From: Escherichia phage Ptacy1496
Sequence record: PQ863253.1
Strand: one strand, 5' to 3'
Length of the DNA: 64,000 nt
In this document: piece by piece, positions 2,448 through 64,000 of the stretch
Position numbering within the stretch: position 1 is the stretch's first letter
Layout of the letters: every line of letters begins with the position of its first letter
The notes under the pieces: generated by a model
Database searches by the model: none
Told to the model about the DNA's origin: nothing
Seen by the model: only the letters and a program-made list of their open reading frames with translations
Position numbers and translations under genes: made by a program

Positions 2448-4264
2448 TACTGGCTCATCCATTCTTTACGAAGGTCAGCATTATCTCCCATGAGCATTTC
2501 AAAAAGCTCTTTCCAGTTCTCAGGAAGTTTAACAACATCATATACTGGATTTTGAATCATCTCACGATATTCAGATTTTTCCAAAGAGCCAAGTCCTTTA
2601 ATATAACGGATGCTATGTTTAGGTAGAGCATCTTTAGCACTCTCATATTCAGCGACTGTATAAAACCATTCTTGTTTTTTACCAATCTGTGCGATGATTA
2701 CAGGAGTTTTGACAAAGCGAATTCGTCCTTGCTCAAACAGTTCTGGCCAATTACTAAAAAATCCAAGCAGAGAAGGATAAATGCTTCCTAGACCATCATG
2801 GTCAGCATCAGTCATAATAGCAATATTATGATAATTCAAGTTTTCAGCTTTTTCACCGAGAACTAATCCAGTGATTGCGCAAATATCAAACAGTTCTTTG
2901 TTTTTAAGCATGTCAGCATATGACATACCCCAACTGTTGAGAACTTTACCACGTAATGGATAACCACCGTGAAGTTCTTTATCACGAACATCAATAAGAT
3001 ATCCGATAGCCGAATCACCCTCAGTCAAGAAAAGAGTAGTATCAGCATCTTTACCACAAAGATTCGCTTTAATATGTTTATGAACCTTAGCTTTAGAAGC
3101 CTTTTTAGCTGCTTTAGTTTCTGCTGCTTTTTCTGCCGCTAATTTACGAGCCAAAGCAGCTTCAATAATCGGCATTAGAATTGCTTCATTATTTAGAATA
3201 GCACGTGAAATCTTTTTAGCATCAAGTTGAATATGACTACGGATTTCACCAAATGGAGAAGTCAAACGCTCTTTAGTTTGAGAATCAAATCGCATGTTTT
3301 TCATATCACGGACAAACATAACGATAGTCAAACATTCTTTAACGCGTGCTTTAGTCACATCAATTTTGAACTTACGTTTGATTTGTGGAATAAGGTCTTC
3401 ACAAATATCATCCATAACACAGTCAATGTGATGGCCACCATTCTTAGTGTGAATGTTATTCACATAAGTTAATTGACGAAAACCATCCGGTGAACGACCA
3501 ACCGCAATAGAGCAATTTTCTTGTTCTTGAACGATAGCATGCTCATCATATTGGCGTGCATATTTCTTAAAATTGCCCTGAACCTTTTTACCATTAAAGG
3601 TAAATTGAATATCAGGATAAACTACTGCAAGTGTCTGGAGACGATCTAGTGTAATGTCAAGATAAACTTGGGACAGCTCATTAGTTTCAAATGACATAAA
3701 ATCAGGAATGAAAGTAACGCGAGTTCCTTTCCATTTTCCTGGAATAGTTTCCCATGATTTATTTTCCATGCCATTTGAACAACGAACTACAATATTATTT
3801 TGACCATCACCAGTTTCACCGACAAACATCACAGAAAAAATGTTTGTCAAACTAGAACCAACACCATTCATACCACCGGTGACGCGTTCTTTATCATCAC
3901 CGAAGTTACCACCTGCTTTTGGAATAGTCCAGGCAGCAACAGGACCAGGAATTTCTTCACCAGTAGGTGTTTTGACCATCGCTTGTGGAATACCGCGACC
4001 GTTATCTTCAACTGTTACTTGATTGTTTTTAATAGTAATATTAATTTTATTTGCGAATTTAAACTTAGTACGAATACCTTCATCTACTGAGTTATCGATA
4101 ATTTCATCAATAAGCTTAACAAGACCAGGTACATACTGAACACTTTCCCATTTACCAAACAGAAAGCGCTCATGCATTTCATTAGCAGAAGAGCCAATAT
4201 ACATGCCGCTACGCTTTTTGATATGTTCAATATCGCTCAGAATTTTAATTTCATTCTTAATCAT
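2447..4264 (-). CDS. 39: DNA topoisomerase II large subunit, contiguous (gp39 plus gp60-equivalent C-terminus)
   Basis: 605 aa from ATG; GHKL ATPase and Toprim motifs; C-terminus matches recalled T4 gp60 sequence without interruption. Confidence 0.9.
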   Translation of the reverse strand: MIKNEIKILSDIEHIKKRSGMYIGSSANEMHERFLFGKWESVQYVPGLVKLIDEIIDNSVDEGIRTKFKFANKINITIKNNQVTVEDNGRGIPQAMVKTPTGEEIPGPVAAWTIPKAGGNFGDDKERVTGGMNGVGSSLTNIFSVMFVGETGDGQNNIVVRCSNGMENKSWETIPGKWKGTRVTFIPDFMSFETNELSQVYLDITLDRLQTLAVVYPDIQFTFNGKKVQGNFKKYARQYDEHAIVQEQENCSIAVGRSPDGFRQLTYVNNIHTKNGGHHIDCVMDDICEDLIPQIKRKFKIDVTKARVKECLTIVMFVRDMKNMRFDSQTKERLTSPFGEIRSHIQLDAKKISRAILNNEAILMPIIEAALARKLAAEKAAETKAAKKASKAKVHKHIKANLCGKDADTTLFLTEGDSAIGYLIDVRDKELHGGYPLRGKVLNSWGMSYADMLKNKELFDICAITGLVLGEKAENLNYHNIAIMTDADHDGLGSIYPSLLGFFSNWPELFEQGRIRFVKTPVIIAQIGKKQEWFYTVAEYESAKDALPKHSIRYIKGLGSLEKSEYREMIQNPVYDVVKLPENWKELFEMLMGDNADLRKEWMSQ

Positions 4265-4291
4265 CACTTATCCTCGTTTGGTTTCGGGAAT

Positions 4292-4318
4292 ATTATACTC
4301 CGGTAATCATAAAGCTAA
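4292..4318 (-). promoter_or_regulatory. candidate middle promoter (MotA-box-like TAGCTTTA, 12 nt, TATAAT)
   Basis: minus strand tTAGCTTTA then 12 nt then TATAAT, about 30 nt upstream of gene 39 start. Confidence 0.4.
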
Positions 4319-4334
4319 AGGCCCGAAGGCCTTT
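4317..4334 (-). terminator. stem-loop AAAGGCC-cgaa-GGCCTTT, intrinsic-terminator-like
   Basis: perfect palindrome with flanking A/T runs between 39.1-position ORF and gene 39. Confidence 0.45.
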
Positions 4335-4603
4335 TATTTAAAACGAATAGTCGAATCCTTGAAGAATAGTCCAGAACATACTGTTCCTTCTACTTTCTGC
4401 CCAGTAGGTCCAATAGCACGAAATCCAGTATGCTGGAAATCATTTTCAGAGCAACCGAACCAATTATATCCAGTGATTTCAATATTAGTAAAACCACTTG
4501 AAGACAAAACTTTGGTTGCATTATCAGCATCAGTACATCCTATTAAAGACACTGCTAATACTAATGCTGCGATAGAACGATTAATATATTTCATAATTTT
4601 CAC
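4334..4603 (-). CDS. putative lipoprotein
   Basis: 89 aa; N-terminal signal peptide ending in lipobox LIGC. Confidence 0.55.
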   Translation of the reverse strand: MKIMKYINRSIAALVLAVSLIGCTDADNATKVLSSSGFTNIEITGYNWFGCSENDFQHTGFRAIGPTGQKVEGTVCSGLFFKDSTIRFK

Positions 4604-5152: not shown

Positions 5153-5566
5153 TTATTCCTTAAAGTGAGCTTTCAACATCTGATACAAGGACCATGCCTG
5201 TTCATCATTTTCAATAGTAACTTTCATTACAGGGAATTTAGATTGATCAGTTATCGGTGCAGATTCTTCCTGCTCTTCAGCTGCCTGGTATGGATTTTCA
5301 ACTTCATTAAAGAATTCAGCTTCATTCGATGAAAGCCAAATAAAATCTTCATCCAAAATATCTTTACCAGAAGATAGTACTAAATTTCCAGCAAATGACA
5401 TAATTTTAATAGGACGCCCAAGAGCATCCACATCTAAAATTTTAAAAGGATGCATACCTAAACGGCGTGCATAGATTCCGTTATCAGTATGGTCTTTAAT
5501 AAAATTTTCTTGAGCTTGTTTATTTTTAAACTGATACCATTTATTAACTTCAAATTTAATAGCCAT
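5153..5566 (-). CDS. hypothetical protein (goF position)
   Basis: 137 aa ORF; position relative to gene 39 resembles T4 goF; sequence identity not verified. Confidence 0.45.
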
Positions 5567-5781
5567 TAATAAATTTCCTTCCAGTAAGTTGTACCATCTT
5601 CAGTGATTTCACGAAATACACCGTAAATTGGTTGTTTATCCCCAACCTTTTCATACACATAAACCGAAGTCAAGTGAGTAAACTTAGCAGTGTGTTCCTT
5701 TTGAACTACTACCAAATCTGGATCGAATAACACATCTTCAAATTCGTCATTAGTGCAGTTCTGAACAATTTTACGTTTCAT
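5566..5781 (-). CDS. hypothetical protein (cef position, 71 aa)
   Basis: 71 aa ORF, same length as T4 cef; identity not verified. Confidence 0.4.
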
Positions 5782-5880
5782 TACAATTTCCTCGTTAATT
5801 GAACATTGGAGCGATGCGTTTCAGAAGAGTAGCAGCACCTTTGGCAAATTTTCCATTTTATTCTCCAAATTATTTTCTAT

Positions 5881-5923
5881 ATCAGTAGTTGATATTGATA
5901 TAGTACCATAATCAACTACTGAT
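5881..5923. repeat. 13-bp perfect inverted repeat ATCAGTAGTTGAT with 17-nt loop
   Basis: ATCAGTAGTTGAT...ATCAACTACTGAT in the 172-bp intergenic region between cef-position ORF and motB-like ORF. Confidence 0.8.
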
Positions 5924-5953
5924 GTATATAGTTTTATGAAAAAATTTTAAACT

Positions 5954-6445
5954 TTATGCATAGCGAGCTTTGCTGTAGTGTTTAATCCAACTTTCAGGAA
6001 TGACTTTGTATGTTCCTAAAAATACCGCGTTGTATAACTTAACGCCATCTTCTACCCATTGATCAGTAATGTATGCACACATAGCGCGAGTACGCTGAGG
6101 AAGTGGTTGTCCACCTTCGGTAAATTCAAACTCATAAGGAGCAATGAACTTGATAGCTTGACCAAGTTTCCACTTAAAGTCTACACCTACATGCGAAGTA
6201 TCAATCGTTTCAATTCCTTTAGCAGGAACAGCTTTCAAAAACGCAGGATCAAGAAATTTCCATCGAACATAACCAAACTGGGGCTTAGACATTCCATCTT
6301 TAGCAATGATACGTACTTTTACTTCAGAATCTTCATCTTTAACACCGTGTTTAAGCTGAATGCTTACAACTTCGACCAATTTTCCTGCTGCTTTAGAACG
6401 GGATTTATCAGATACACGAGCAATTTCACCGATAATAATATTCAT
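5954..6445 (-). CDS. MotB-like protein (motB position)
   Basis: 163 aa ORF; T4 MotB is 162 aa at equivalent position; shares C-terminal domain with next ORF. Confidence 0.5.
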   Translation of the reverse strand: MNIIIGEIARVSDKSRSKAAGKLVEVVSIQLKHGVKDEDSEVKVRIIAKDGMSKPQFGYVRWKFLDPAFLKAVPAKGIETIDTSHVGVDFKWKLGQAIKFIAPYEFEFTEGGQPLPQRTRAMCAYITDQWVEDGVKLYNAVFLGTYKVIPESWIKHYSKARYA

Positions 6446-7570: not shown

Positions 7571-7597
7571 TTTATTATCCTCAGTAGCTATGGTGTT

Positions 7598-7627
7598 ATA
7601 ATACCACAACTAACCGAGGAAGTAAAC
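7598..7627 (-). promoter_or_regulatory. phage early promoter
   Basis: plus strand ATAATA-18nt-GTAAAC between dexA and downstream ORF. Confidence 0.6.
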
Positions 7628-7633
7628 AACTTT

Positions 7634-8317
7634 TTATCGTTTTGTTGGAAGAGATAGAGGATCGCAATCTTCCTCTGACGGAGCATCTTCAAGACCCATA
7701 GCATATCGCAAAGCATACTTCATCATCAGAATATCTTTCGCACAGTCATGAATAGAATCATGCGCAACGAATCCATCTAAAGTTCCTTTTGGAAGAGGAC
7801 ACGTGGTCATATCACGAACAAGCAGAAGTGCTTCAATTCTGGTACGAATATCACGCTGATTCCAGAATTTACATGGTTCTAACTTAAATGTGTCAAGCTC
7901 ATTCTCAGAAACACCATTAAGACGTTGAATATCACGAATGAGATCGACTAAAATTGGAAAATCAAACGACATTCCACGGCACCAGCCTTGAGATTTCCAA
8001 GGATCGATATTATGTGCATTGATGTAATCATTAAATTTTGCAATACCATCGATGGTGCTTACATCTTCATCTGATGGTGCAATATTTTTTCGAGCTTCAG
8101 GAGACTGATTTTTCCACCATTCGATAGTGCTTTTAGTAAAAAGACGATGTCCTTTTTGGCTTTTTAAATCAAATTTGATTTTAATGCCGCGTGAAACTAA
8201 TTCATCAAATGTTTCAACTACTTCTGGGTTAGGGTCAAAAGCAATTACAGCTAAATCAATAACAGCTGCTTTTTCACCACTTCCCATTGTTTCAAAATCT
8301 ATAATAAAATCAAACAT
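7634..8317 (-). CDS. dexA: exonuclease A (DnaQ-like 3'-5' exonuclease)
   Basis: 227 aa as in T4 DexA; N-terminal IDFETMG Exo I motif. Confidence 0.85.
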   Translation of the reverse strand: MFDFIIDFETMGSGEKAAVIDLAVIAFDPNPEVVETFDELVSRGIKIKFDLKSQKGHRLFTKSTIEWWKNQSPEARKNIAPSDEDVSTIDGIAKFNDYINAHNIDPWKSQGWCRGMSFDFPILVDLIRDIQRLNGVSENELDTFKLEPCKFWNQRDIRTRIEALLLVRDMTTCPLPKGTLDGFVAHDSIHDCAKDILMMKYALRYAMGLEDAPSEEDCDPLSLPTKR

Positions 8318-9050: not shown

Positions 9051-10370
9051 TCACACATAAAACACATCATAACGACCACGGGTAACACCAACATAAAGAA
9101 GTTGTTGGGCCAATTCAGCATCTGCATAATGAATACAAGGCGTATAAATGAAAGCACGGTCTACAGACATACCCTGAGCTTTATGGAATGTTGATGCAGG
9201 AAGTGCTTTCACTTTACTAAACTGTGATTTAGCATCCCAAAAATCACTCCATGGAGCTTTTCCGCCTTTGTTCCAATTTTTATAAGTTTCTGCCGTTTTA
9301 CCTAAAAATAGGTTAAACTTATATAACTCTTCATCAGATGAAATTATTTTAATCTTTTCACGATAATATTCATCATCGCCGTAAGTTTCTACTGTTAAAT
9401 CCCAATGACGAATTAAGTATTCTCCAGGAACACCACGAGCTTTAACAAACGTCGATGTATACTCTGCTTCTATAATACGAACTAATTGTCCGTTATTAAA
9501 AATAATTTCTGACACAGGCTTTCCATCAATTTTATATGTTTTAATTAATGGTTCCTGCATTACAATAATTTCACCGACAATAAAATCTTTATCAGTTTCA
9601 AAAATCTTTTTACGAATAATGCTATTTAACTTGTCAACAGATTTATTCGTAAATGCCATTACGCGATTTTCAAACAAATCATCTAGTGATTTTACGATTG
9701 AAAAATAATTTACCATAAAATCGCGTAAAGCGGTATCACCAGTAAATCCACGTACTCCATGCCCGTCAACAATTTTATCATAAATCCACTTACCGTTACG
9801 AACGTCAGTAGCTACATCAATAATAGGAGCATTACTGCGTTTAACTTCAGTGAGTTCACACTGATAAAAATCTTTGTGTGTAAAGAATGGACTGATATAA
9901 GCAGTGTTTTCTCCTGGGTCAACAGGTCTAATCTGCTTATTATCACCTATTCCAATTATAGTACACCACGGCGGGATAGTTGAAAGCAAAATTTTGAAGA
10001 GCTTTCTATCATACATTGACACTTCGTCGCAGATTAATACCCTGCATTTAGCTAAATCTGGTACTTCTTTTTGTTCAAAAAGAACGTTTTCTTCATACGT
10101 AACTGGGTTAATTTTAAGAATACTATGAATAGTACTCGCTTCTTTCCCTGACAGTTTTGAAAGAATCTTTTTAGCCGCATGCGTAGGAGCTGCTAAAATA
10201 ATACCAGTTTCACCCGTAGATATTAAAGCTTCAATGATGAACTTAGTAAGAGTAGTCTTACCAGTACCGGCAGGTCCATTAATAGTTACATGGTGTTTCT
10301 TTTCTTTAATAGCCTTCATAACAATGTTAAAGGCATTTTTCTGGCCTTCGGTCAAATCATCAAATGTCAT
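9051..10370 (-). CDS. dda: Dda DNA helicase (SF1B)
   Basis: 439 aa as in T4 Dda; Walker A GPAGTGKT; N-terminus matches recalled Dda. Confidence 0.93.
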   Translation of the reverse strand: MTFDDLTEGQKNAFNIVMKAIKEKKHHVTINGPAGTGKTTLTKFIIEALISTGETGIILAAPTHAAKKILSKLSGKEASTIHSILKINPVTYEENVLFEQKEVPDLAKCRVLICDEVSMYDRKLFKILLSTIPPWCTIIGIGDNKQIRPVDPGENTAYISPFFTHKDFYQCELTEVKRSNAPIIDVATDVRNGKWIYDKIVDGHGVRGFTGDTALRDFMVNYFSIVKSLDDLFENRVMAFTNKSVDKLNSIIRKKIFETDKDFIVGEIIVMQEPLIKTYKIDGKPVSEIIFNNGQLVRIIEAEYTSTFVKARGVPGEYLIRHWDLTVETYGDDEYYREKIKIISSDEELYKFNLFLGKTAETYKNWNKGGKAPWSDFWDAKSQFSKVKALPASTFHKAQGMSVDRAFIYTPCIHYADAELAQQLLYVGVTRGRYDVFYV

Positions 10371-10678
10371 CGTAAATTCCCTGCAATTGGTATACTAACA
10401 ATACGCCCAGTATCTAAAATTCGCTGATATAATCTTTGCGTGTCTACGTCAGGCTTAACATGTTTAACTTCTATTTTATTAAACCAAAACTTGCGTGGAG
10501 TCTCAACTAGTCTTGGAATTCCCATACCTAAAGCTAGTTTATATTGGTCTTTGAGAGTAGTAAAAACTCTATCAGCAATCTCTCTTTCAAAAAACACAGC
10601 AGGACGATGTTCATCAAGTGGAACTGGCGCCGTAAATCCGTCTTTGTCTCGGTAAACTATCGCATATACATAAACCAT
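10367..10678 (-). CDS. hypothetical protein (dda.1 position)
   Basis: 103 aa ORF overlapping dda start by 4 nt. Confidence 0.55.
   Translation of the reverse strand: MVYVYAIVYRDKDGFTAPVPLDEHRPAVFFEREIADRVFTTLKDQYKLALGMGIPRLVETPRKFWFNKIEVKHVKPDVDTQRLYQRILDTGRIVSIPIAGNLR
10486..10618. repeat. 133-bp direct repeat, copy 1 (inside dda.1-position ORF)
   Basis: about 85-90 percent identical to 10759..10891 by eye. Confidence 0.85.
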
Positions 10679-10729
10679 ATTATCCTCGGATAAGTTTAAA
10701 AATTGAACAATTTAGCGGGTATCCTCTTT

Positions 10730-10912
10730 TCAGTTTAAGTTTATCAATAAAAGACAAAAAAACTTGCGTGGAGTCTCAACTAATCTTGGAATTCCCTTAC
10801 CTAAAGCTAATCGATACTGCTCTTTAAGAGTAGTAAATACTTTATCAGCAATATTCCATTCAAAAAATACAGCAGGACGATGTTCATCAAGAACTTTTTC
10901 ACAATTTTCCAA
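10730..10912 (-). pseudogene. truncated duplicate of the dda.1-position gene
   Basis: 60 aa ORF whose residues LDEHRPAVFFE...GIPRLVETPRKF repeat the middle of the 103-aa ORF; lacks its N- and C-terminal parts. Confidence 0.5.
10759..10891. repeat. 133-bp direct repeat, copy 2 (truncated gene copy)
   Basis: near-duplicate of 10486..10618, 273 bp downstream. Confidence 0.85.
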
Positions 10913-11493
10913 TCCGAGCCTTTAAGAAGAACGTTCAATTTAACAACTTCAGCGCCTTCTGCTATGCGAGAACCATCAATACGTGCTTTAAGTGCTATAA
11001 TCCTTAGCTTAATGTCAGAGGTCTGTTTTGATTTAGAAAGCTGAGAAATGTGTTCAATTCGGTTTTCACGTTTTTTCTGTATAGCTTTAATTTGATTATA
11101 AGTCTTTTTGATTTTAGCCCATTTCTTTTCATCTAAATTTAGTTTATGAACTTTTTTCGCAGATGAACGACCAATTCGCAAAGCAAATAAATCACGCTTT
11201 TCAATCAACTCTTCTAAAGTATAATCAGAACGAAATGTATTATACTTTTTCTTTACTGCAATAACATTCCCTTTAATGTATCCAACGTTATTATCAAAAC
11301 GTTCTAATGATAATTTCTCTCCTTCAATACGATTATCAAAAGGTTCTCCCGAGTAAGCACAAACTTTTTGATCTAAAATGTTCTTAATGTAATTGAAGTC
11401 TAAGTTAAAATCTTTAGAACGTCTTTTTGCAGATGCCTGAGTATGCTCTAGACGACGTTTAATTTTACGAATTTGGTTATTAGACAGCTTCAT
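10807..11493 (-). CDS. hypothetical basic protein with degenerate HNH-like motif (srd position)
   Basis: 228 aa; CAYSGEPF...LSLERFDNNVGYIKGNVIAV resembles an HNH core lacking catalytic His/Cys; C-terminal tail runs into the duplicated segment. Confidence 0.45.
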   Translation of the reverse strand: MKLSNNQIRKIKRRLEHTQASAKRRSKDFNLDFNYIKNILDQKVCAYSGEPFDNRIEGEKLSLERFDNNVGYIKGNVIAVKKKYNTFRSDYTLEELIEKRDLFALRIGRSSAKKVHKLNLDEKKWAKIKKTYNQIKAIQKKRENRIEHISQLSKSKQTSDIKLRIIALKARIDGSRIAEGAEVVKLNVLLKGSDWKIVKKFLMNIVLLYFLNGILLIKYLLLLKSSID

Positions 11494-11615
11494 ATTTTTC
11501 TCACATCTTACGGACGGTTAACTACTTATACTATAACATTTTTACCTTAACTTGTAAACAACTTTATGAAAAATGCTTTAAAACTTTCATGGTATAATGA
11601 ATCTAAGTCCTTCCA

Positions 11616-12218
11616 TTATAGATTAAATCCTTCAAAATCAAGAGTATAGATAGTGTATGTTGAATACTTTTTATACTCGTATCTATCCGCAATTCTAAAT
11701 ACACTTCCAGCTGGTATCATTACTTCTTGTTCATCTGAAACTAATTCCATATTACGATAGCGATGGCTATCCGGAAACTTAAAACTCGGACTATATTCTT
11801 TACAACGTAAAGCTTTTATAGCATACTCCTGGAAATTAAACACCATAGGAGCTTTGAATTCAAAAATAACTTGTGTGTTGTATTCTAATCCAGAAGCAAA
11901 ATGTAGAGCTATATTTTTATCATATGAAGCTGATACTACTTTATCAAATGTAATAATATCAATTCCTTGATTTAACACCTGTTTAGTCTCAACTGGAACA
12001 CCTCTCCAAAGAGGTTTATCGTTTGGAACCAAACGAGATTTGACTATTTCATTTAACCAAGAATGATCGTCTGGTTTATTAGTAATACAATGAATTAAAA
12101 GTTCAATTTCAGATAAATTAAACCCTTCAGAAAGTAATTCTTCACGAATAGAAGCACGCACCGATGCATCCATTGATTTTATTTTAAAATCTTTTAGTTG
12201 CATTACTGAGTATTTCAT
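11616..12218 (-). CDS. modA: ADP-ribosyltransferase ModA
   Basis: 200 aa as in T4 ModA; position after dda; ART-like content. Confidence 0.75.
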   Translation of the reverse strand: MKYSVMQLKDFKIKSMDASVRASIREELLSEGFNLSEIELLIHCITNKPDDHSWLNEIVKSRLVPNDKPLWRGVPVETKQVLNQGIDIITFDKVVSASYDKNIALHFASGLEYNTQVIFEFKAPMVFNFQEYAIKALRCKEYSPSFKFPDSHRYRNMELVSDEQEVMIPAGSVFRIADRYEYKKYSTYTIYTLDFEGFNL

Positions 12219-12838
12219 TCAACTACCTCAATATCATAAACTTTAAATGTTCCAAATGAATCGTGTAATTTTTCTTTTGAAATAGAAGTTATTTTATACT
12301 TTCCAATTGGAATCATCCATTCTTGTTCACGCACAATCATCATTAAGTTATCAGTACGTTCTGAATCTAATCCATCAGTATCTTCATATGTATACTTAAA
12401 TTCAGTATTAGGAGAAGAAAGTATAATATCGCTGATATGGTCAGAATAATTAAAAGCTTTATCAGTTTTTAAGCGAAATATTATTTCAGTGAAATACTCA
12501 ACATAAGAAAAACCACATGCTGTGTGCAAACTAGTAGTAAATGAATCTACTCTGTTCGTTGAAAACACTTCTCCGACTTGTAAATCTTTAATGAGTTCTT
12601 TTGTCGATTTTGATATACCACGATATAGCTGATAAGGCGATTTAGTTAAATGCTTTTTAACGATTTTATTCAACTGCCGATGAAGAGCTTCATTCTTTTT
12701 GGCTTCCATACACTGCCAAAGAACTGACTGTTCAAAGTCAGTAAATTTTTCACAGACCTTTTTATACATATCATATTGAAAATCAACGCTTTCAGCTTTT
12801 ATAGATAACTGTTCAACATCTGCAAGATTAATAATCAT
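12215..12838 (-). CDS. modB: ADP-ribosyltransferase ModB
   Basis: 207 aa as in T4 ModB; overlaps modA start by 4 nt. Confidence 0.75.
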   Translation of the reverse strand: MIINLADVEQLSIKAESVDFQYDMYKKVCEKFTDFEQSVLWQCMEAKKNEALHRQLNKIVKKHLTKSPYQLYRGISKSTKELIKDLQVGEVFSTNRVDSFTTSLHTACGFSYVEYFTEIIFRLKTDKAFNYSDHISDIILSSPNTEFKYTYEDTDGLDSERTDNLMMIVREQEWMIPIGKYKITSISKEKLHDSFGTFKVYDIEVVE

Positions 12839-12864
12839 GATAGCCTCCGTATACTTCAGAAGCT

Positions 12865-12894
12865 ATCATATCATCGTTAGGAAGGAAAGTAAAC
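12865..12894 (-). promoter_or_regulatory. phage early promoter
   Basis: plus strand ATCATA-18nt-GTAAAC upstream of modB. Confidence 0.55.
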
Positions 12895-12905
12895 AACTTT
12901 TTGAA

Positions 12906-13088
12906 TTATTTTGCCCAGGGAGCCCAGGGCGGAGGGTCAAGATGGTATGAAGCTAGTTCTTCTAGAAGAGCATCTGGGGCTTCAATTCCATAATTCTGTA
13001 ATACTATACGGTACTCTTTCTTATAATCACTAGAATCATTCTGGATATTCGTAGAATGATTATCTTCTAACATCTCAAATAAATCCAT
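12906..13088 (-). CDS. hypothetical protein
   Basis: 60 aa ORF. Confidence 0.4.
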   Translation of the reverse strand: MDLFEMLEDNHSTNIQNDSSDYKKEYRIVLQNYGIEAPDALLEELASYHLDPPPWAPWAK

Positions 13089-17617: not shown

Positions 17618-17642
17618 TATATCATCCTCAGCAATTTATTTT

Positions 17643-17672
17643 ATAATACCATAACAAGCTGAGAAAGTAAAC
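17643..17672 (-). promoter_or_regulatory. phage early promoter
   Basis: plus strand ATAATA-18nt-GTAAAC upstream of 186-aa ORF. Confidence 0.65.
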
Positions 17673-17707
17673 AAATTTATGATAAATATTAATTTAAAGG
17701 AGGACAT

Positions 17708-18935: not shown

Positions 18936-19100
18936 TTACTCTTCTTTTTCTTTAGATTCCTCTTTCTTCTTTTTAGGAATCTGTTCAGGACCTTTATTTA
19001 CTACAGCACCTGACGTTGTTCCAGTAGAGATATTTTCAGGATTACCACCTGAATCTCCAGCGACCATATCTTCTTTAATAAATTCTTTATATGTTTTCAT
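18936..19100 (-). CDS. small acidic/lysine-rich protein (54 aa, not in ORF track)
   Basis: hand translation MKTYKEFIKEDMVAGDSGGNPENIS...KEEKE; stop 2 nt before gene 61 ATG. Confidence 0.3.
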   Translation of the reverse strand: MKTYKEFIKEDMVAGDSGGNPENISTGTTSGAVVNKGPEQIPKKKKEESKEKEE

Positions 19101-19146
19101 ATTAACCTCTATTCATAAAAGCATTAAAAATTTGGTCATCAATAGA
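19098..19146. repeat. 49-bp direct repeat, copy 1 (3' end of 61.1-position gene)
   Basis: CATATTAACCTCTATTCATAAAAGCATTAAAAATTTGGTCATCAATAGA; 3 mismatches to copy 2. Confidence 0.85.
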
Positions 19147-19458
19147 TGGCGCAGTAATATTTTCTGCATCATTTAGCAAATCATTAATTTCATCAGATAG
19201 CATAACACATGTACCTTTATTTCCTGTAATTGTTACTGCACAATTACGAACGTTTTCTTTATCAAATTTTAGGTTAATATTTTCGTAGTGAAAATCCTTT
19301 AATGCCGAATATATCTTTAAAATGAAATTGTCTTTTACTACAATAAACCCAACCTCACTATTAAAACGCGGTTCATGGAAACTGTAATAAACCTTTTCAT
19401 CTATAAAATCGTATGAAATTTTTTCCATTTTTAAATATGAAAATTCAGAACTGTACAT
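19102..19458 (-). CDS. hypothetical protein (61.1 position)
   Basis: 118 aa; C-terminal SIDDQIFNAFMNRG shared with next ORF. Confidence 0.5.
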   Translation of the reverse strand: MYSSEFSYLKMEKISYDFIDEKVYYSFHEPRFNSEVGFIVVKDNFILKIYSALKDFHYENINLKFDKENVRNCAVTITGNKGTCVMLSDEINDLLNDAENITAPSIDDQIFNAFMNRG

Positions 19459-19505
19459 ATTAACCTTTATTCATAAAAGCATTAAAAATTTGATCGTCAA
19501 TAGAA
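19457..19505. repeat. 49-bp direct repeat, copy 2 (3' end of 61.2-position gene)
   Basis: CATATTAACCTTTATTCATAAAAGCATTAAAAATTTGATCGTCAATAGA. Confidence 0.85.
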
Positions 19506-26365: not shown

Positions 26366-26632
26366 TTAAAACTTAACAAATAACTTTAAAGCATCTTCAG
26401 TTTTAATTCCTTTTCTTACACCCATAACAGAAATTGGCTGTGACTGAAATTTTCCTTTACCATTATAAATTTCTAATCCAGTCACCATTCCATTTTGTTC
26501 TATAATACCGTAAGTGTTACCTTCATTTTCAAATTCTTTAACTTTAAAAAGTTTATTCGCTTTTTCTGCGTTAACAACTTTTAAATTTTGAATAAAATTA
26601 GTTTGAATATTTTTCATTTTGTGTTCCTCCAT
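26366..26632 (-). CDS. hypothetical protein
   Basis: 88 aa ORF directly downstream of early promoter cassette. Confidence 0.45.
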   Translation of the reverse strand: MEEHKMKNIQTNFIQNLKVVNAEKANKLFKVKEFENEGNTYGIIEQNGMVTGLEIYNGKGKFQSQPISVMGVRKGIKTEDALKLFVKF

Positions 26633-26677
26633 AGTTGATAGTTGTATAGTACCACAGAGGAACGGTCTTGTAAACAG
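26613..26677. repeat. 65-bp promoter/5'UTR cassette, copy 1
   Basis: near-identical (1 mismatch) to 51560..51622. Confidence 0.85.
26646..26675 (-). promoter_or_regulatory. phage early promoter (TACTAT -10)
   Basis: plus strand ATAGTA-18nt-GTAAAC. Confidence 0.6.
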
Positions 26678-51034: not shown

Positions 51035-51562
51035 TTATGCGAGTACCGTCTTTAACCGTTCTTCAAACTTCCGAAGAGTATTCTGGCGTTCAGCTCTTTG
51101 CTTTTTGTAAGTTTCAATACGCTCTGAAATGAGAGTGTATCGTTCATTTACTGATTCTTTCATAAAATCAGGAATTTCACGAGAAGCTTTAATCTCGTCA
51201 AATTTATCAATAACAGCTTGCTCTTCAGCAATTAAGTTATCATACATCAAAATATCTTTCTTGATGAACTCAATATCTTCTTGAGTTACACGAGATAATT
51301 TAGATGCTTTATCCTTTTTGTACTGTTCGTTAGTATCACGAGACCAGTGTAATGTACGATTTTTATTCGTATTCTTATAAATTTCTACAATACCAATCTC
51401 ATCAATAATAACGATCCAATTCCAACGGGATTTGTAAATTTGTCCTCCATCAACCGTGATTTCACCTCCGATTGAGATGTCATTAAAGAACTTGCTTTGT
51501 GCTTCAGATTTAAATTTACCATCGTTGTAATTTACCAGGTTGAAAATATCTTTAGCGTTCAT
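51035..51562 (-). CDS. hypothetical protein with C-terminal coiled coil
   Basis: ORF track 51035..51622; start moved to MNAKDIFNLV... with GGAGG Shine-Dalgarno; 175 aa. Confidence 0.5.
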   Translation of the reverse strand: MNAKDIFNLVNYNDGKFKSEAQSKFFNDISIGGEITVDGGQIYKSRWNWIVIIDEIGIVEIYKNTNKNRTLHWSRDTNEQYKKDKASKLSRVTQEDIEFIKKDILMYDNLIAEEQAVIDKFDEIKASREIPDFMKESVNERYTLISERIETYKKQRAERQNTLRKFEERLKTVLA

Positions 51563-51622
51563 TTTGTGTTCCTCCGTAGTTGATAGTTGTATAGTACCAC
51601 AGAGGAACGGTCTTGTAAACAA
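51560..51622. repeat. 65-bp promoter/5'UTR cassette, copy 2
   Basis: near-identical to 26613..26677. Confidence 0.85.
51591..51620 (-). promoter_or_regulatory. phage early promoter (TACTAT -10)
   Basis: plus strand ATAGTA-18nt-GTAAAC. Confidence 0.6.
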
Positions 51623-56882: not shown

Positions 56883-57070
56883 TATTCCACCACATATGAA
56901 AGAGAGAATATTGCACACGCCATATGAGTTGCAGCTTCATCACACATATCATAACGTTTCTTAAGAAGTTCTACAAGTTCTTCACTAGTAACTTCATCCA
57001 TGTCGACGAAAAAATCACCATTAATGATGACGTAGATATTTCCTTCTTGATTAAGTGCTTCAATTTTCAT
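56882..57070 (-). CDS. hypothetical protein
   Basis: ORF track 56882..57115; start moved to MKIEALNQ with GAGGAG Shine-Dalgarno. Confidence 0.4.
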
Positions 57071-57098
57071 GATGTTCTCCTCTTTATCCGATAGTTGT

Positions 57099-57128
57099 AT
57101 AGTATCACAGCTCAAATGGAAAGTAAAC
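57099..57128 (-). promoter_or_regulatory. phage early promoter (TACTAT -10)
   Basis: plus strand ATAGTA-18nt-GTAAAC. Confidence 0.6.
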
Positions 57129-57144
57129 CGGTAAAATGAAAAAA

Positions 57145-63891: not shown

Positions 63892-63916
63892 TTTATCCCT
63901 CCAAGTAACTGTGAAT

Positions 63917-63946
63917 ATACTATCACAATTCTAGGAGAAAGTAAAC
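63917..63946 (-). promoter_or_regulatory. phage early promoter (TAGTAT -10)
   Basis: plus strand ATACTA-18nt-GTAAAC upstream of denV. Confidence 0.5.
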
Positions 63947-64000
63947 AACTTTATAGATTTTTATACGCGTCCCAAGTGCCAGTTCTAAACGTTGCAATGA

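Follow-up and report, generated by a model that had tools for sequence, protein, structure and literature searches.

Alignment with related phages places a 133-nt fragment of the gene dda.1 inside the neighbouring gene srd in Escherichia phage Ptacy1496 (sequence record PQ863253.1), where it stands in place of 66 nt of srd. The stretch of DNA that was analysed, referred to here as the window, is 64,000 nt long. The inserted fragment is of the type carried by phages KMB26 and AR1, and both its flanks and the resident dda.1 gene are of the type carried by phage G29. We regard this arrangement as probably the scar of an illegitimate (non-homologous) recombination event, recent and strain-specific, in a mosaic Tequatrovirus. 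The locus comprises dda, dda.1, srd, modA and modB of a T4-like Tequatrovirus, all of them on the minus strand, and the features that carry the argument are as follows (aa, amino acids; ORF, open reading frame).

10367..10678, minus strand: intact dda.1, 103 aa; matches Pfam PF25693 (Phage_Y01A) at E = 6.8e-23 and is collinear with T4 dda.1
10486..10618, minus strand: repeat copy A, which is coding nt 61-193 (codons 21-65) of the resident dda.1, G29-type allele
10680..10758, minus strand: orphaned 3' end of srd, 79 nt, the last ~26 codons and the stop codon; aligned to 1881-1959 of the T4 locus (L001, NC_000866.4)
10730..10912, minus strand: 60-aa ORF with a TTG start, carrying copy B in the dda.1 frame; Pfam PF25693 at E = 0.0014, under the curated cut-off
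10758..10759: junction J2, between the srd 3' remnant and the start of copy B
10759..10891, minus strand: repeat copy B, the ectopic dda.1 fragment, KMB26/AR1/Shinka-type allele
10807..11493, minus strand: truncated srd ORF, 228 aa
10891..10892: junction J1, between the end of copy B and srd codon 201

The two copies form a direct repeat (10486-10618 and 10759-10891) of 133 nt with 118/133 identical positions (89%), 15 mismatches and a start-to-start distance of 273 nt, which confirms the repeat of roughly 85-90% identity, 273 bp apart, described in an initial annotation of this DNA. It is the longest direct repeat across the 64-kb window, and copy B matches dda.1 of other phages at E = 7e-62, so the repeat is not a product of chance. 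Copy A has 0 mismatches to the G29 allele and 15 to that of KMB26; copy B has 0 to KMB26 and 15 to G29. Among the database matches, copy B is 100% identical to dda.1 in the 38 top-ranked of the 40 listed and at least 99% identical in 47 records, with AR1, Shinka and fFiEco06 included. Twelve codons differ between the copies, six synonymously and six non-synonymously. Judged by their sequences, copies A and B are two natural alleles, each identical to an extant phage allele, and not a copy and its diverged parent. The initial annotation had read them as a partial gene duplication; the repeated dda.1 segment is there, but its copies come from two different natural alleles. Duplication of the resident segment with later divergence in place to 89% would account for a direct repeat in the same orientation 273 nt apart, and yet we give it next to no probability. 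The exact match of each copy to a different extant allele excludes it, and with flanks only 0-1% from their closest relatives, an 11% change that recreates a known allele is not credible.

The centre of dda.1 (window 10510-10619) is a sharply bounded polymorphic block among Tequatroviruses, with natural haplotypes ~11% apart and flanks 98-100% identical. The limits of the copied segment (10486-10618) almost match those of this block, a near coincidence that, speculatively, might be left when a mismatched heteroduplex is processed during a mixed infection. The Shinka record labels dda.1 'antitoxin HicB'.

In three- and five-way alignments of the window with T4, KMB26, G29 and PhiZZ23, the 133 nt at 10759-10891 stand where all four relatives have 66 nt of srd, with collinear flanks on both sides. 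The replaced segment corresponds in T4 to L001 1960-2025 (NC_000866.4 11118-11183), and the net change is +67 nt. Copy B has the same orientation as the resident dda.1. The recombination scar suggested by the initial annotation is supported by this replacement, and no other record in the collections searched is like it. About 500 phage records, T4 among them, match window 10300-11700 at 95-99% identity in a comparison collection that does not contain the window itself (best match over 25 kb, 98.2%). The T4 form of the srd 3' region is unbroken in ~497 Tequatrovirus records (at least 90% identity), the annotated relatives that were inspected all have an srd of 747 nt, and none of the other T-even phages has the repeat. 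All near matches to window 10700-10950 fall in three pieces, with the insert part mapping to dda.1. Exact searches of IMG/VR and JGI metagenome contigs found neither J1 nor J2, and exact look-up of the 228-aa product found no record.

At J2 there is a run of seven A residues, three from srd and four from dda.1, with no common microhomology. At J1 the sole nearby similarity is AACT/AGTT, located 3 nt further along in dda.1. A patchy likeness of the lost 66 nt to copy B (GATACYGCTCT ... TTTATCA) was considered as a nucleator of the exchange and rejected, as its score was met by 430 of 2000 shuffles. The lack of microhomology and the chance-level similarity indicate that both joins are non-homologous.

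Truncated srd and the deleted promoter

The 228-aa and 60-aa ORFs exist as initially described, and the larger one is srd. It lies between dda.1 and modA on the same strand, as in T4, which is the position that the initial annotation had named. T4 srd has 747 nt (248 codons) and stops 1 nt ahead of dda.1. The window ORF matches PHROG 1400 'Srd anti-sigma factor' at E = 3.3e-83 over residues 4-200 only, and from residue 1 to 200 it is 100% identical to P0001, an intact Srd of 248 aa (441 member sequences). This identity indicates that there has been no further decay and that the event is recent. After residue 200 the ORF continues with a 28-aa out-of-frame hydrophobic tail, FLMNIVLLYFLNGILLIKYLLLLKSSID, which is read from copy B, and then stops. 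The overlap of the ORF with copy B (10807-10891) therefore amounts to 28 codons; the initial annotation was right that the ORF reads into the repeat, but its figure of ~35 codons was too high. The alignment is not end to end: in the alignment with Srd homologues, the window protein departs after K200 and ends at residue 228. The DNA for Srd residues 224-248 persists at 10680-10758, cut off from the ORF.

The predicted protein is thus cut after residue 200 and has lost the conserved C-terminal 48 residues. The C-terminus of Srd is conserved in homologues down to 32-43% identity, with L232 invariant and G235, L236 and P237 nearly so, and the C-terminal motif KLKRG-x-PL (region ~201-248) is gone from the window protein. 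An AlphaFold2 (AF2) model of the intact Srd allele, with a predicted local distance difference test (pLDDT) score of 82, has helices at 194-222 and 226-233, which are removed or replaced in the window. In comparison with T4 Srd (248 aa), gene position, strand and the upstream promoter-like site match, and residues 1-200 are those of an intact Srd allele, whereas the last 28 residues of the window protein are foreign and neither the conserved C-terminal helices nor KLKRG-x-PL is present. No other Srd with this C-terminal end was found in the collections searched or by look-up of the exact product. Srd is described as binding the N-terminal half of RNase E and stimulating host mRNA decay (Qi et al. 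2015, as reported in PMC13232886 and PMC4980113), and we infer a functional effect of the truncation. The 60-aa ORF is most likely a by-product of the insertion; no evident ribosome-binding site was seen upstream when the sequence was read by eye.

The replaced 66 nt hold Srd codons ~201-223 and, in T4, also the middle promoter Pdda.1. The Pdda.1 start site is at 11138 (Hinton 2010, Table 1, PMC2988021), and for the dda.1 transcript a leader of 101 nt is reported, with A at both +1 and -1 (bioRxiv 10.1101/2024.04.04.588121, 2026 preprint). Counting back 101 nt from the dda.1 ATG in T4 leads to 11138, where an A follows another A, in agreement with the published start. This transcript is ~35% capped with nicotinamide adenine dinucleotide (NAD), and its start is the sole one detected for dda.1 through dexA.1 (same preprint). 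T4 Pdda.1 has TGaTAAAAT at -15 to -7 and AAATGCAATA at -34 to -25, and the spacing between AAATGCAATA and the -10 element fits the MotA-box rule of 12 +/- 1 bp. With the start at 11138, the missing T4 positions 11118-11183 correspond to -45 to +21. The alignment shows that the MotA-dependent Pdda.1 and its start site are deleted: the MotA-box-like element, extended -10, start site and +1 to +21 of the T4 promoter, which is the source of the NAD-capped dda.1 to dexA.1 transcript, are absent from the window, whereas +22 to +101 of the 5' untranslated region (80 of 101 nt) are kept, the Shine-Dalgarno sequence included. A replacement promoter was looked for in and beside copy B, and none was found.

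Ahead of srd, the promoter-like site at 11558-11530 has stayed intact and is also present in T4; it is likely to be the remaining source of transcription for dda.1 and dda. By read-through from this early promoter, dda.1, dda, dexA.2 and dexA.1 would now be transcribed. The site and the surrounding genes are listed below.

9051-10370, minus strand: dda (ORF list)
11530..11558, minus strand: sigma-70 type promoter-like site upstream of srd, TTTACA-17-TATAGT with TG; same site in T4
11616-12218, minus strand: modA (ORF list)
12215-12838, minus strand: modB (ORF list)

The replaced 66 nt closely coincide with the whole promoter (-45 to +21), and the remaining srd shows no decay. Both observations would suit a selected functional rearrangement, in which loss of Pdda.1 or of the Srd C-terminus, or gain of the 60-aa Dda.1 fragment, was advantageous on the isolation host, for example by escape from a defence that senses Srd or cuts the 66-nt segment. 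We consider this very unlikely. The arrangement does not recur in other isolates in the collections searched, and no defence system or target was identified. Moreover, any 66-nt loss within this 150-nt stretch would strike the promoter, and the 60-aa ORF starts with TTG and has no evident ribosome-binding site. A literature search for srd or dda escape mutants gave nothing relevant.

Probable origin of the rearrangement

At every discriminating site in 10510-10758 and 10984-11300, where the table of single-nucleotide polymorphisms (SNPs) for the G29/KMB26 comparison ends, the window is identical to G29, and 200-nt bins over 11000-12000 have 0 differences to G29. The lone non-G29 exception is position 10893, just outside copy B. 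At seven sites in dda, from 9773 to 9975, the window has the KMB26 state and not that of G29. The presence of G29-type and KMB26-type sites close together indicates that both lineages contributed to this neighbourhood. The closest relative of the window switches every few hundred bases; no simple parents could be assigned.

A recent non-homologous exchange would have occurred when two Tequatrovirus lineages infected the same cell and part of dda.1 from the second phage was joined ectopically, ~140 nt away from the homologous site. A single template-switch, patch insertion or break-repair event could have sufficed. Equally, an unequal exchange could have produced a tandem duplication of 273 bp that ran from srd codon 223 to where the dda.1 segment ends, and 206 bp could then have been deleted; the sequence is compatible with a single event and with duplication followed by deletion. 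In either case, the 5' end of dda.1 now lies between two direct repeats of 133 nt that are 89% identical. Products of T-even illegitimate recombination and mosaicism are similar to the window in having a short ectopic copy in the same orientation near its source, together with a deletion, in a mosaic genome. The window differs from them in that its junctions have no usable microhomology and the ectopic allele is unlike the resident one.

The mosaic structure could also be explained if the 133-nt segment was duplicated within one KMB26/Shinka-type genome and the resident dda.1 block and most of its surroundings were later replaced by homologous recombination with a G29-like phage. Mosaicism in Tequatrovirus genomes is fine-grained, as the switching relatives of the window illustrate, position 10893 next to copy B is non-G29, and Shinka matches 10700-10950 at 100% in three pieces. 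We consider this course of events possible but unlikely, since it requires an extra event, the G29-type replacement must halt exactly at 10758 and resume by 10984 while sparing copy B, and the KMB26-type DNA beyond copy B rests on one SNP.

An assembly or sequencing artefact, namely a chimeric contig from two co-cultured Tequatrovirus haplotypes, was also considered. None of ~500 relatives and none of the collections searched has the arrangement, copies A and B are exactly the two haplotypes expected in a mixed sample, and the local mosaic could partly be consensus switching. However, the junctions have no common sequence that could mislead an overlap or k-mer assembler, and the similarity of the replaced 66 nt to copy B is at chance level (430/2000 shuffles). 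In addition, 66 nt were lost at the same site with otherwise perfectly collinear flanks. Because of the non-homologous junctions and the simultaneous 66-nt loss, an assembly error is less likely than a real scar, and we judge an artefact improbable.

Several points weigh against a recent non-homologous scar with the consequences set out above. The arrangement is known from one sequence only, and an assembly or cloning error is possible. Junctions free of microhomology are unusual among T4 deletions and duplications. The sequence fits two orders of events, either the arrival of a foreign patch or a self-duplication after which the allele was replaced. The truncated Srd may retain partial activity, as suggested by homologues of its N-terminal domain that stand alone in many phages, and read-through from upstream may give enough dda.1 and dda transcript.

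The N-terminal domain of Srd

The initial annotation had noted in the 228-aa ORF a motif reminiscent of an HNH core without the catalytic His and the second Cys pair. This motif is present among the Srd residues, as C45-A-Y-S-G ... L-S-L-E64-R65-F-D ... G71-Y72 ... G75-N76-V ... Y-N85, with no His at the general-base position and a single Cys. The N-terminal ~100 residues match PHROG families of endonuclease (E = 9e-19), HNH endonuclease (E = 1e-16) and endonuclease VII (E = 1e-7). Neither Srd nor 30 homologues matched a Pfam HNH model, even with a threshold of E <= 0.1; an NCBIfam search found nothing, and a single-sequence search of PDB sequences found nothing useful.

An AF2 model of residues 1-97, made with 31 diverse homologues, has a pLDDT of 86 and a helix-helix-beta-beta-alpha layout, and it contains the beta-beta-alpha core fold of the His-Me finger superfamily. 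A Foldseek search of this model against PDB retrieved Gme HNH (E = 5e-3, probability 1.00) and PacI (probability 0.94, template modelling score 0.60). In a search of PDB sequences with the Srd family profile (hmmsearch), PacI was the sole nuclease among three weak matches (E = 0.87), and hhalign of the same profile with PacI 27-126 gave E = 8.5e-5 and a probability of 60%. PacI residues D92, R93, Y100 and N113 align with Srd E64, R65, Y72 and N85, and the sequence alignments agree on this register. In PacI, which has no such His, the role of general base falls to a Tyr of the inter-strand loop, and N113 is the metal-binding Asn; PacI-like fingers form group 20 of the His-Me fingers (Jablonska et al. 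2017, PMC5714182). In the 31-sequence Srd family alignment, D/E64, Y72, N76, N85 and C45 are conserved in 31/31 sequences and R65 in 30/31. The Srd N-terminal domain is therefore predicted to be a PacI-like His-Me finger (HNH / beta-beta-alpha-metal), and it occupies the following part of the gene.

11203..11493, minus strand: Srd N-terminal domain, residues 1-97, predicted PacI-like His-Me finger

Srd and PacI (PDB 3m7k / 3ldy) have in common the acidic, Tyr and Asn catalytic positions and the Arg in place of His. They differ at the four-Cys zinc site by the active site of PacI, of which Srd keeps only C45; the other three ligand positions are S/T48, K81 and Y84 in Srd and are variable in the family, so that no CXXC/CXXC site is present, and Srd has no counterpart of the second zinc site of PacI. 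Srd also has a long helical C-terminal extension, its sequence similarity to PacI is weak, and no nuclease activity has been reported for it. A literature search found no paper linking Srd with HNH. The initial suggestion of a domesticated HNH-derived protein is thus supported at the level of the fold, by AF2, hhalign and Foldseek, but not beyond it.

Arg occupies the His position throughout the family and in active PacI, so the missing His is not a sign of recent decay; the HNH-like look of the 228-aa ORF is an old trait, common to the Srd family, and is unrelated to the scar. This bears on the other initial proposal, a homing scar with a decayed endonuclease. In that view a mobile HNH enzyme would have degenerated into the 228-aa ORF, and the repeat would trace the tract of its insertion or co-conversion. 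The endonuclease, HNH endonuclease and endonuclease VII PHROG matches and the HNH-type predicted fold speak for such a homing scar, but we consider it extremely unlikely. The ORF is srd (PHROG 1400), found at the same position in all ~497 Tequatrovirus records checked, with no presence/absence polymorphism among them, and in more distant T4-like phages as well. Furthermore, srd belongs to the host-takeover genes, with RNase E as its reported target, and the insert is a dda.1 fragment with no target-site structure or duplication. The proposal is not supported.

Homologues of the Srd N-terminal domain that stand alone, with 100-180 aa, are common in phage contigs. A large family of such proteins without a Pfam domain (P0025-P0140, metagenomic phage contigs) carries the motif of the domain, with S-x-D-R-I-D in its central part; for the Srd domain and its stand-alone homologues together the motif reads C-x-Y-[ST]-G ... 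S-x-[DE]-R-[IV]-D-x-x-K-G-Y-I-K-G-N-V ... N-x-x-K. At E <= 1e-3, 186 proteins match the domain, and only one of them has a precomputed Pfam domain (PF28513). On the basis of the model, it is conceivable, though we hold it to be doubtful, that the Srd N-terminal domain and its stand-alone homologues are zinc-less PacI-type fingers that bind or cut nucleic acid via Asp/Glu, Tyr and Asn. Srd would then stimulate RNase E-dependent decay by direct action on RNA or DNA and not as a sigma-factor decoy. If this were true, the phage would be a natural truncation in which the N-terminal module and the central helices (1-200) are kept and the C-terminal 48 residues are lost.

Other observations and significance

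Further repeats were observed in the window. Dispersed direct repeats of 47-64 nt occur at 26613-26676, 51558-51621 and 57066-57129, and at 7597-7643, 12864-12910, 17642-17688 and 63916-63962; they hold GTTTAC-like and TATAAT-like elements on the minus strand and resemble the long conserved early promoters of T4. A 49-nt repeat with 94% identity (19098-19146 / 19456-19504) lies in adjacent minus-strand genes of 118 aa and 210 aa, which have a common C-terminal peptide, SIDDQIFNAFMN(R/K)G, and a stop/start overlap, suggesting neighbouring paralogues. An inverted repeat at 5861-5943 has 40 nt, 70% complementarity and a 3-nt spacer.

Some labels in the compared records are likely to be name-collision errors. 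Phage modA.2 and modA.3 are labelled 'molybdenum ABC transporter periplasmic binding protein ModA' in L002 (OR539218.1) 4041-4335 and L006 (MZ502379.1) 5542-6361, and T4 dexA.2 is labelled 'dextranase' in L001 (NC_000866.4) 1-230.

In terms of annotation, the ORF of 228 aa should be named a truncated srd, that of 60 aa is most likely a by-product, and the phage is one without Pdda.1. The scar looks ordinary in kind and like a one-off. It provides a small, clean example of non-homologous exchange in a mixed infection, in which the allele of one lineage was pasted ectopically into a neighbouring gene of another. The C-terminal truncation of srd together with the Pdda.1 deletion is a natural and apparently viable combination, of modest value as a natural mutant. 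The PacI-like N-terminal domain of Srd, in which the PacI catalytic positions are invariant family-wide, is a side result and may be the more useful lead.

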